Part shown: piece by piece, positions 50,734-53,794 of the stretch
How the letters are laid out: each line of letters opens with the position of its first letter
Position numbering within the stretch: the stretch's first letter is position 1
Origin: Promethearchaeota archaeon
Lineage (GTDB): Archaea; Asgardarchaeota; Lokiarchaeia; Sigyniarchaeales; SOKP01
Length of the DNA stretch: 64,000 nucleotides
Direction: 5' to 3'
Assembly (NCBI GenBank): GCA_030599585.1
Contig: JAUVNS010000016.1
Coordinates: 1 to 64,000 of the forward strand
The notes under the pieces: model-generated
What the model was told of the DNA's origin: nothing
What the model saw: the letters and a program-made list of their open reading frames with translations, nothing else
The model's database searches: none
Made by a program: the position numbers and the translations under genes

Positions 50734-51438
50734 TTGGATACCTTTGACATAGCTTCCTTACTAAATTTGCTAAAAGAATGTAGAATCGTTTCGATCTCGG
50801 GAGAATCAGGCACCGGAAAAACTACCTTAGCTTTACAGTTGGTCGCTTCTGCGTTAACTCAAAAGGGCGGGAGCGAGAACCAAGCTTTATGGGTCCAAGC
50901 CAGCGAACAATTTCCTAAAAAACGTCTTCAAGTACTTTTTAAAAATTCTCACGATAGCTATAAAGCCCTCCTAAAAAGAATTTTTGTACATCCAGGAACG
51001 AATCCTTTTTTGGATTATCAAACCCAATCTATCTTTTTTGCGAACTTAATATCTGTAATTTTACCGTTTAACACTAAATACATCGTAATTGATAACATAT
51101 CCCACTACCTAAGGTTTGCTGCTTCGTGTTGCTCCGATGTAAAGCAAAAGATGGCGCTCTTAGACGCTTTTTTTAGCTCACAACTATTTCCTCTTATAAT
51201 GCGGTGTCTAAGGGAAGAGATCGTTCTTGTGTTAATACACGAAGTCTCTTTCGACCCTGCGCTAGGAAAAAACCAACCATTTTTTAACAAGTTATACTCG
51301 AGGATCAACAGCGTAAACGTGAGCTTGTCAAAACCGTTCGGCTCTAAAGTCAAATTGATGGAACTTGCCTCGCGGGACGAGTTAATTTCGAAAGGCGTAA
51401 GATACATGATCAAAAACAAAGGAATTTCTATAATTTAA
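50734..51438 (+). CDS. RadB/RAD51-paralog-like ATPase
   Basis: GESGTGKT, EQFPKKRL, IVIDNIS; no N-terminal HhH domain. Confidence 0.85.
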   Translation: MDTFDIASLLNLLKECRIVSISGESGTGKTTLALQLVASALTQKGGSENQALWVQASEQFPKKRLQVLFKNSHDSYKALLKRIFVHPGTNPFLDYQTQSIFFANLISVILPFNTKYIVIDNISHYLRFAASCCSDVKQKMALLDAFFSSQLFPLIMRCLREEIVLVLIHEVSFDPALGKNQPFFNKLYSRINSVNVSLSKPFGSKVKLMELASRDELISKGVRYMIKNKGISII

Positions 51439-51519: not shown

Positions 51520-51894
51520 ATGATCAACTCGACTAATTCTAAAATTTCTCGGGGGATTAAATGTTCCATCTGTCGATCCGGGATTAAAGACCTCAGAACA
51601 ATGTATCAATCAAGGCTAAAATTAGGAGTAATCTGTAAAACTTGTCGGAAACATTTCTCTGAAGACGATATCGAGATGATCGTGAACTTATTTTTTGCGT
51701 TTGGAGGATATTTCGGACAGTTCGATAAATCCGACTTTTCTATGGACGAAGCAATCTTCGAATTTGCAGAAAAGCTATCCGCGGGAGATTCTACTTTTCA
51801 CGCCCAGAACGTGAAGATGTGGCACAAAATACTAACTTACGGCATCACACCTAAAGAGTTTTTGGAAGAGTTGTCTGTTTTTGCTAACCAGTAA
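51520..51894 (+). CDS. Zinc-finger hypothetical protein
   Basis: CSIC...CKTC; FFAFGGYFG. Confidence 0.75.
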   Translation: MINSTNSKISRGIKCSICRSGIKDLRTMYQSRLKLGVICKTCRKHFSEDDIEMIVNLFFAFGGYFGQFDKSDFSMDEAIFEFAEKLSAGDSTFHAQNVKMWHKILTYGITPKEFLEELSVFANQ

Positions 51895-52019
51895 TTTTGA
51901 ATTAATCGTTCCTGCTTATTATGCAAAAGTTTTTCACAATATTTGATCTGATTTAAATATTTAGGTACATAATAAGTCTTAAAATTCAAAAGACGAATAA
52001 ATTACACAAAAATTAGTAT

Positions 52020-52295
52020 ATGGAAGTAAGCATTATGGATTGGGAGAAATATATTAAAGATTTTGTAACTTATACGGAACATACTAAAAGTGTATCGGTC
52101 CTTGAAATTGATGAAGGAGGAGAAATAAATAAAGTAGATGTTTTGGATGAAAAGGTTGAAGATATAGGAAAAAAATATTTTACTTGTTTATTATGCAATA
52201 AAAGGATTAAAGATTCCACAGAAAGTAGTTTATTCCAAATATTTACTGCAAAGAAGATTAAACTTCATTTTGAAAAAAATCATCTTCAAACTTAA
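52020..52295 (+). CDS. C2H2-like zinc-finger small protein (CpG-poor)
   Basis: CLLC...HFEKNH. Confidence 0.55.
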   Translation: MEVSIMDWEKYIKDFVTYTEHTKSVSVLEIDEGGEINKVDVLDEKVEDIGKKYFTCLLCNKRIKDSTESSLFQIFTAKKIKLHFEKNHLQT

Positions 52296-52315
52296 CAATT
52301 AAAAACTCTCTTTTT

Positions 52316-52328
52316 TTTTCTTTAAATA
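52316..52328 (+). promoter_or_regulatory. Pyrimidine-BRE promoter of radA
   Basis: TTTTCTTTAAATA, 35 nt before the ATG (T-run may double as the upstream terminator). Confidence 0.55.
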
Positions 52329-52363
52329 AAATCGTTTGTATACAAGTTTAATTCAAATTACAC

Positions 52364-53657
52364 ATGAGAGATGATAACAAAAAAATTATGTCAGACTTAG
52401 ACCAAGTAAAATCGATCAACGCCCGACAGATCAAACTCCTTCAAGAAAGCGGGATTAGCACGGCTGAAGCGCTTGCAATGTCCCCACACAACATCATATC
52501 AGAGATCGACGGATTAGGCGGTAAAACGGCGAAAAAATTAATTTGGAACGCGAGAAACGCCCTTGGAATGACAGAATTCACGACTGCTTACGATATCGAC
52601 GAGAATACGGAGTATATTACCACCGGTTCTTCTGAACTAAACAGGATTTTAGGCGGTGGGTTCCAAACGGGTAAACTTACCGAAGTATACGGTCCTTTCA
52701 AAAGCGGGAAGACGAATTTGGCCCATACCATTGCGGTAACCATCCAACTTCCAAAGAAAAAAGGAGGTTTGAACTCGGCTGTTGCTTACATTGACACGGA
52801 AAACACGTTTGCTAAGGAAAAAATCAAAAGAATCGCCAAGAGATTTGGACTCGATCCAAAAAAAGTACTGTCCCAAATATTTCACGCCAGAATATATTCT
52901 TCAGACCACCAGATGCAAATGATTCAGAAGGCAGAAACCCTATGCAAGACGAGGAACGTGCGACTTATCGTGGTAGATAGCTTAATGGCTTTAATGAGAG
53001 TTGAATACATAGGAATTGGAATGCTCGCTCGTCGTCAAGGAGTTCTCAACAACATGATACACGGGCTTTCTCGAATTGCAGAGACTTACAATTGCGCTAT
53101 TTTACTTACCAATCAAGTATCGACCAAAATGATGGGTATGTTTTCAGGAAACGACGCCATAGGGGGAAATAGTGACGAGATATTTCGTCAGTCACTTCTA
53201 AATAGTAGCCCATGGTTGCCACTTCCGTGTCATGTTTAAAACAAAAGGATTTTCAGCAAATAACTCTTTGAAGCGAAGAGCAGTGATAGTAGACGCGCCC
53301 GACTTACCACCAGACGAAGCTGAGTTCTATATTACAGCCGTAGGTATTGCTGACACAGAAAAAGGAGAAGTTCCGGAAGCGAAAGGGTTGGACTTCGAAG
53401 TAGAAGCGTTGTACGAGGAAGAGCAAGTTGTAGAAGAAGTGTCTATTGAAGAAAGTACCGATTCAGGAGAGTATTCATTAATAGACGTAAAAGGGATAGG
53501 AGCCGGAATGGCAAAAAACCTCATTAAAAACGGAGTTACTTCGGTTGACGCCTTGATTGAATCCGATCCCGAACAACTTGCCTCCAAAATTAGCGGTATC
53601 TCCTCTAAAATGATAAATGATTGGCAAACAAACGCGATTGCTCTTATAAACGCCTAA
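52364..53657 (+). CDS. radA: RadA recombinase with extra C-terminal HhH domain; join(52364..53170,53202..53657), 420 aa
   Basis: N-terminal HhH, ITTGS, GPFKSGKT, YIDTENTF, LIVVDSL, LARRQ, TNQV; removing 53171-53201 gives DAIGGN|IVAHGCHFRVMFK...DAPDLP and fuses the two ORF-track ORFs. Confidence 0.92.
53171..53201 (+). other. 31-nt putative bulge-helix-bulge/loop (EndA-type) mRNA intron in radA
   Basis: AGTGACGAGATATTTCGTCAGTCACTTCTAA; central helix GGAA/UUCU, bulge AU^A, inner stem GUGAC/GUCAC, 3' cut AA^A; the predicted cuts equal the frame-restoring deletion. Confidence 0.75.
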
Positions 53658-53794
53658 ATTTCTTTTTTTTTATTTTATTTTTTGCTTTTTTTTTACCTTG
53701 TGATTCAAGCTAAAAAAATAATTTTGAATTTGATGGGCTTAGAATAATTTTTGATTTTATTGAGTGGTTTAAAGAAAGAGTGTTAGAATTTGGT

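Follow-up and report, generated by a model that had tools for sequence, protein, structure and literature searches.

How a complete RadA-family protein could be made from a gene whose reading frame breaks within the catalytic core is the question raised by a locus on the plus strand of contig JAUVNS010000016.1 (GenBank assembly GCA_030599585.1), in the 64,000-nucleotide (nt) stretch of Promethearchaeota DNA analysed here, which we call the window. An open reading frame (ORF) at 52364..53239 encodes 291 amino acids (aa), departs from the RadA alignment after ...NDAIGGN and runs through unrelated residues to a stop codon; the frame one base further on resumes RadA with IVAHGCHFRVMFKTKG and completes the ATPase core, after which come an acidic linker, a second helix-hairpin-helix (HhH) and a stop at 53655-53657. 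Without 53171-53201, GGA AAT is joined to ATA GTA GCC and a single frame of 269 + 151 = 420 codons results, bearing out the original prediction, made from the letters of the window, of a removable 31-nt insert between GGN and IVAH. Deletion of 53172-53202 would give the identical product because 53171 and 53202 are both A. We regard it as very likely that the pre-mRNA of a Lokiarchaeial RadA paralogue contains, at 53171-53201, a 31-nt intron for the archaeal splicing endonuclease, and that this intron belongs to the HBh' class, in which four exon bases 5' of the bulge pair with four intron bases 5' of the 3' site and the intron forms a further helix, h'. Splicing of the mRNA by tRNA-splicing enzymes would very probably be required for the full RadA-paralogue product. 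The parts of the locus are the following:

52364..53170, plus strand: exon 1 of the RadA paralogue, comprising the N-terminal HhH and the ATPase core through GGN (Pfam Rad51, 1.3e-60, and HHH_5; NF003301 RadA, 273 bits)
53171..53201, plus strand: predicted intron, 31 nt, phase 0, between Asn and Ile codons (exact gap in 62 intronless homologues, insert in 34 distinct sequences)
53202..53657, plus strand: exon 2, comprising the end of the ATPase core (IVAHGCHFRVMFKTKG...), acidic linker, C-terminal HhH and stop at 53655-53657 (Pfam HHH_5, 2.6e-10; C-terminal end of Rad51)
53165..53168, plus strand: 5' strand of the central helix H, GGAA, in the exon (partner 53196-53199)
53196..53199, plus strand: 3' strand of the central helix H, UUCU, in the intron (all four pairs kept in the variants UCUC and UUCC)
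53169..53171, plus strand: 5' bulge AUA, 3 nt, between H and h' in every copy (predicted cut after 53170)
53172..53195, plus strand: intron hairpin, with h' at 53172-53176/53191-53195, an apical helix at 53179-53181/53187-53189 and a 5-nt loop
53200..53202, plus strand: 3' splice-site AAA (predicted cut after 53201), followed by six unpaired exon bases and hence a loop, not a closed 3-nt bulge
53156..53164 / 53209-53216, plus strand: exon-exon stem of the original prediction, found in the minimum free energy (MFE) fold of the present copy and not conserved

The insert is exactly 31 nt long, at the identical site, in nine distinct copies from species-representative genomes, and it is exactly absent from 62 other homologues, with intronless orthologues up to 96% identical to the intron-bearing gene. 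Metagenome contigs were searched with a degenerate pattern that permitted R or Y at several paired positions without forcing covariation, and left 14 central columns, including the apical helix, unconstrained. This search returned 42 matches, 38 of them in the RadA-paralogue gene, and added 25 further distinct sequences, bringing the total to 34 distinct intron-bearing sequences from Promethearchaeota/Lokiarchaeia genomes and metagenomes.

An alignment of relatives, which the original prediction had proposed as a check on the insert and its compensatory changes, could thus be made on these 34 sequences. Every element that had been described for the present copy (GGAA/UUCU, the AUA bulge, the GUGAC/GUCAC stem and AAA at 53200-53202) lies where it had been placed, and we counted pairing for one fixed structure of 12 pairs and 408 cells (53165-53168/53196-53199, 53172-53176/53191-53195 and 53179-53181/53187-53189). 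Standard pairs occupy 99.0% of the cells and six of the 12 pairs show changes on both sides (42 cells), a pairing score attained in none of 500 shuffles; when the partners are slid by 1-3 columns, pairing falls to 26-50%. The nine genome copies alone give much the same picture, with 98.1% of cells paired and the identical six pairs changed on both sides. The central helix H is paired in 100% of cells and covaries, GGGA occurring with UCUC and GGAA with UUCC (A-U to G-C in seven sequences, G-U/G-C exchanges elsewhere). In the intron hairpin, which RNAalifold also recovers, 98.5% of cells are paired and five of the eight pairs have both-side changes, three of them within the five base pairs (bp) of h'; some of these compensations, such as G-C to A-U at 53172/53195, amount to two non-synonymous changes in the read-through frame. 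AAAU at the 3' splice site is invariant in all 34 sequences. At random genome sites, a 4/4 central helix with an adjoining helix of at least 5 bp at a pre-fixed boundary occurs with a frequency of 2.3e-4. A scan of 52300-53700 against Rfam (E up to 1) gave zero matches, and a tRNA scan of the 64-kb window gave zero tRNAs.

The outermost part of the structure fared differently. The exon-exon stem at 53156-53164/53209-53216, with which the original prediction had completed a bulge-helix-bulge (BHB) or bulge-helix-loop intron, does appear in the MFE fold of a 73-nt piece; across the copies only 79% of its cells are paired, compensatory changes are lacking and six of the nine distinct genome copies have a disrupted closing pair, and we found no conserved helix closing the 3' site. 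What stands of that description is an EndA-type motif with cuts that restore the frame; the full BHB does not. Because the outer stem is not conserved, its closing pair being broken in 6/9 copies, we class the motif as HBh' rather than strict hBHBh', its 3' site lying in an open loop.

In a canonical tRNA, anticodon bases one and two are part of the central helix, and the intron begins after position 37 (PMC4090602). This geometry places the cut after the second bulge nucleotide, which here means after 53170 and after 53201, as originally proposed, and these cuts coincide with the alignment gap in the 62 intronless homologues. One copy (L094) separates the second-nucleotide cut from its neighbours: its third bulge base, the first base of the intron, is U instead of A, so that only a cut after the second bulge nucleotide preserves the conserved Ile codon AUA.

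The substitution pattern changes at the same two points. Within the insert, variable columns number 7, 7 and 7 of 10 by read-through codon position, without codon periodicity, whereas in the six codons on each side they number 1/0/5 and 0/0/6; the switch from coding to non-coding falls at the predicted boundaries. Downstream, the first 51 codons of exon 2 in the spliced frame have a ratio of non-synonymous to synonymous change (dN/dS) of 0.015-0.04, with synonymous sites at or near saturation, so the downstream exon is not decaying; decay would have told against the original prediction. The ten codons from the insert to the first possible restart read IVAHGCHFRV in 9/9 genome copies, with synonymous variation at all ten, and are nearly identical in the 25 metagenome copies.

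We propose the following sequence of events. The exon GGAA would pair with the intron UUCU to form the central helix, presenting on the 5' strand a 3-nt bulge AU/A (/ marks the predicted cut) and the intron hairpin, and on the 3' strand AA/A after the helix. A heterotetrameric (alpha-beta)2 EndA would then cleave both sites behind their second nucleotide, between 53170 and 53171 and between 53201 and 53202, and RtcB would ligate the exons, freeing the intron, probably as a 31-nt circle. The spliced product ...DAIGGN/IVAHGCHFR... would be 420 aa long, or 412 aa with a start at 52388, with the junction peptide ...DAIGGNIVAHGCHFR, while unspliced RNA would yield the 291-aa protein, which lacks the last strands of the ATPase core. 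The true start may perhaps be the ATG at 52388, as homologues mostly align only from residue 7-9.

The enzymes called for are encoded in the assembly. There are two PF01974 genes (200 aa, G000:C24:165434-166033, and 201 aa, on G000:C35; 28% identical to each other). One is an EndA alpha subunit that aligns end to end and ungapped with the catalytic subunit of the Aeropyrum pernix heterotetramer, KPR loop region included, and keeps the Tyr and His; the other is a beta-like subunit without the catalytic His. RtcB is also encoded (567 bits). Asgard archaea have an (alpha-beta)2 EndA with an L1 loop that gives a broad substrate range, and HBh' substrates are cut even by a loop-less heterotetramer (PMC5829648). 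The Ire1 nuclease domain PF06479 has no match in the assembly, which is weak evidence since control genomes also have none. A comparison with the motifs of the assembly's own tRNA introns was given up: ARAGORN with introns, run on the whole assembly, called only 21 tRNAs with odd intron calls, and these were unusable for the purpose.

Several observations weigh against an EndA intron. At the 3' site there is no closed 3-nt bulge, and the outer helix h is not conserved, so cleavage would depend on the broad specificity attributed to this EndA type; the action of EndA and RtcB on the RadA-paralogue RNA is itself something we infer from sequence. Folding energy is not significant (z = -1.61 for 73 nt, +0.07 for 181 nt) and at these values was discarded as uninformative. 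RNAalifold favours a register with A53171-U53196 and three central pairs only; that register predicts a 32-nt excision, which does not restore the frame, and was set aside for the register with the 4-bp helix. None of the nine genome introns (0/9) contains an in-frame stop, an absence with a chance of ~0.4-0.6 per sequence and so uninformative. Finally, an exact search of the metagenome contigs for the spliced junction of the present allele gave 0 matches.

That the insert might be translated has to be weighed against this background. Ten extra codons (SDEIFRQSLL) would be read and a programmed +1 frameshift at the conserved CUU CUA A/AU A would lead into the IVAH frame, for which the missing stops, the highly conserved 3' end (UUCUAAAU) and an insert length that is always 3n+1 could all be cited. 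Stops are, however, missing often enough by chance, as noted above, and the 7/7/7 pattern of the insert lacks the third-position variation of the coding flanks. The putative shift codon varies (CUA, UCA, CCA) while its pairing with the exon persists, paired positions covary even where both substitutions alter the amino acid, and AAU, which would occupy the A site in the 0 frame, is a sense codon and not a rare one. Moreover, 62 orthologues, up to 96% identical, do without the ten residues, which would sit inside the conserved GGNIVAH; we consider such a frameshift very unlikely. It is just as improbable, in our view, that the 31 nt are kept in a split gene, with a 291-aa N-terminal fragment ending at TAA 53237-53239 and a 141-aa C-terminal fragment made by translational coupling from the overlapping ATG at 53232. 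This ATG does overlap the stop of the upstream frame (ATGTTTAA), and the TTT AAR that creates the stop is kept in 5/5 intron-bearing copies examined. The Met nevertheless belongs to a conserved RVMFKTKG motif that intronless genes also have, and the break would fall within the ATPase core. IVAHGCHFRV, which precedes the ATG, is protein-identical in the nine genome copies with synonymous changes only, so this stretch is translated as part of the spliced frame; no start codon separates it from the insert.

The insert could also be skipped or removed by some route other than EndA, be it ribosomal bypassing (hopping), excision at the DNA level or an unknown nuclease. A hairpin adjoining the take-off position, as in T4 gene 60, and AAAU at both ends of the insert (53167-53170 and 53200-53203) lend this some appeal, yet a hop from AAU to the matching downstream AAU would skip 33 nt and enter the wrong frame, the correct landing site is preceded by the codon UAA, and recombination between the AAAU repeats would likewise remove 33 nt. 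Hopping does not account for a conserved exon-intron helix H with compensatory changes, whereas the EndA motif does, and we give this group of explanations little credence. A decaying pseudogene or an assembly artefact is scarcely credible. Assembly contamination of 8.9% and a copy in another genome that has lost its first 54 codons (L115, described below) might raise such a suspicion, but the insert recurs in 34 distinct sequences from independent assemblies, and purifying selection on exon 2 in the spliced frame (dN/dS 0.015-0.04, synonymous sites saturated) is not the mark of a pseudogene.

The interrupted gene is not the only radA-like gene of this assembly. Two uninterrupted radA genes in the same assembly, on contigs C24 (331 aa) and C27 (423 aa), score 427-448 bits on both RadA models, the NCBIfam equivalogs NF003301 and TIGR02236. 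An intronless, N-terminally short orthologue of the interrupted gene (L058, G000:C20) passes the NF003301 cut-off of 259 with 309 bits but stays below that of TIGR02236, 361, with 272 bits. Because the orthologue scores 272 on TIGR02236 against 427-448 for the two uninterrupted genes, the interrupted gene appears, as judged by these models, to be a conserved divergent RadA-family paralogue with an added C-terminal HhH and not the canonical recombinase. The suggestion that recombinase production is gated by splicing was therefore too strong, as it is a paralogue that is interrupted and both canonical genes are intact. The acidic linker and second HhH (PF14520, 2.6e-10; window 53400-53654) are absent from ordinary RadA. 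In L058 (840-940), ATT stands in place of the ATG of MSDLDQ, and the first in-frame ATG, GTG or TTG comes 30 codons later; the ATT could be an unusual start codon, or the protein could be N-terminally shortened. The canonical radA gene of 331 aa shares its contig with the gene encoding the catalytic EndA subunit, the two being ~7 kb apart (G000:C24:158000-166000).

Close homologues of the interrupted gene reside in metagenome-assembled genomes named Promethearchaeota or Promethearchaeia, that is, Loki-type Asgard archaea, and the names of these related records agree with the Asgard assignment made at the outset. Within the present assembly the region exists in three versions, on the window contig (C12), C49 and C20, which are syntenic over more than 20 kb (compared spans: window 40000-64000; G000:C49 35700-53560; G000:C20 255000-281000). 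Proteins of the flanking genes are 85-94% identical between the window and C49 and 65-80% identical between the window and C20. The C49 version of the RadA paralogue has the intron as well, and the C20 version is the intronless L058. That the three are paralogues was rejected, since the regions are syntenic over this length, and with an assembly contamination of 8.9% they are probably two or three related populations that were binned together. Between populations that share only 65-80% identity in the neighbouring genes, exon 1 is still 96% identical. Upstream of the RadA paralogue on the same strand (50734-51438 and 51520-52295) are encoded a 234-aa P-loop NTPase with weak KaiC/STAND-like Pfam matches and two small CxxC-pair proteins; the arrangement is kept in the C49 and C20 versions, and these genes may form an operon with the RadA paralogue.

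Intron presence has a patchy history. The gene tree requires at least seven changes and rejects the grouping of all intron-bearing copies in a single clade (p-AU 1.4e-77), and one intronless copy (L041), nested with 99-100% support among intron-bearing copies, is missing exactly the 31 nt, which from its position in the tree is a recent precise intron loss. The introns of the different copies are clearly homologous to each other, and the patchy tree is therefore best read as several events, in the course of evolution, in which the intron was precisely lost or passed from one allele to another, and not as a series of separate insertions. In one genome, Loki_b31, there is a second copy (L115:1170-1530, NJBI01000023) in which unrelated AT-rich DNA replaces the first 54 codons and whose intron is identical to that of the full-length copy in that genome.

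Similar short inserts interrupt two ribosomal protein genes of the assembly. In single-copy uL11 (L136, G000:C28:30910-34113, minus strand), a 28-nt insert after ...GPTGIN has the layout GCAU-AA/A-hairpin-AUGC-AA/A, as in the RadA paralogue, and the predicted cuts would restore the junction GIN/IKDVV. In single-copy uS3 (L137, G000:C11:36302-39553, minus strand), a 30-nt in-frame insert with two stop codons lies between ...RFELEN and PQIEVEEV and contains a GGGGAAAA/UUUUCCC hairpin; no clean 4-bp central helix could be placed at the boundaries tried. Because such inserts interrupt single-copy uL11 and uS3, constitutive removal fits better than a regulated one, and the splicing of the RadA paralogue is most simply constitutive. 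The original comparison with the regulated splicing of HAC1 and XBP1 is not upheld, as EndA and RtcB are a housekeeping pair and we saw no sign of regulation. A broader proposal would have Loki-type Asgard archaea carry a population of EndA-spliced mini-introns in protein genes (candidates being the RadA paralogue, uL11 and uS3) that are gained, lost and exchanged over short evolutionary times, with the splice described here possibly condition-dependent, yielding a truncated 291-aa fragment or the full ATPase. We think this unlikely in its entirety; if the condition-dependent splice were true, the archaea most closely related to eukaryotes would have their own, prokaryotic form of unconventional splicing that switches the frame.

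More generally, the tRNA-splicing machinery appears to have mRNA clients in Asgard archaea, and in Asgard genomes such genes will be annotated by gene callers as split or truncated. The 34 natural variants map the sequence requirements of the motif, precise-loss alleles are also available, and how introns are gained and lost in a prokaryote can be followed in a coding gene, where the reading frame marks the junction exactly.

Protein-spliced introns in archaeal coding sequences are documented in the searchable literature only for cbf5 (PMC2738675, PMC7714728), which in some Crenarchaeota has been the sole documented case for more than 20 years, as is stated explicitly (PMC7714728); our literature search found no paper describing a protein-spliced intron in Asgard protein genes. 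The cbf5 intron of Desulfurococcales and Sulfolobales (Watanabe 2002; Yoshinari 2006; Yokobori 2009, PMC2738675) is likewise short and intragenic with a BHB-like motif, is cut by a heteromeric tRNA-splicing endonuclease, as predicted for the RadA paralogue, and has undergone lineage-specific precise losses. Both inserts must be removed because they disrupt a conserved catalytic-core motif. The two differ in host gene and in phylum (cbf5 in Thermoproteota, the RadA paralogue in Asgard archaea/Promethearchaeota), and the RadA-paralogue intron is of the HBh' type with an open 3' site and a patchier distribution, with at least seven changes on the tree. Splicing of cbf5 has been shown experimentally, whereas that of the RadA paralogue is a prediction. 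The motif definition itself is identical to that of the non-canonical HBh' tRNA introns of Thermoproteota and Asgard archaea (Marck and Grosjean 2003; PMC4090602; preprint 10.64898/2026.10.13.758758), which are of a comparable size range, involve the same enzymes and have been gained and lost repeatedly. Unlike those, the RadA-paralogue intron is hosted by an mRNA, with no tRNA body to aid recognition, and its excision needs to be exact to the nucleotide for the frame to be kept.

An mRNA as a substrate of archaeal splicing endonuclease is also known from Haloferax volcanii HVO_1309, where a BHB intron in the 5' untranslated region was confirmed by circular RNA sequencing (circRNA-seq) and in vitro cleavage (PMC7714728). 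Circles of small size are under-represented in circRNA-seq (PMC7714728). There the intron lies in the untranslated leader and leaves the coding sequence uninterrupted, and the host is a euryarchaeon with an enzyme of strict specificity. HAC1 and XBP1 share with the RadA paralogue the protein-only, non-spliceosomal excision of a short mRNA intron, a change of frame and, in metazoa, an RtcB-type ligase, but they rely on the stress-activated kinase-nuclease Ire1 and twin 7-nt loops where the RadA paralogue has an EndA-type helix with bulges. Set beside cbf5, the RadA paralogue is a well supported case in a second phylum, the one closest to eukaryotes.

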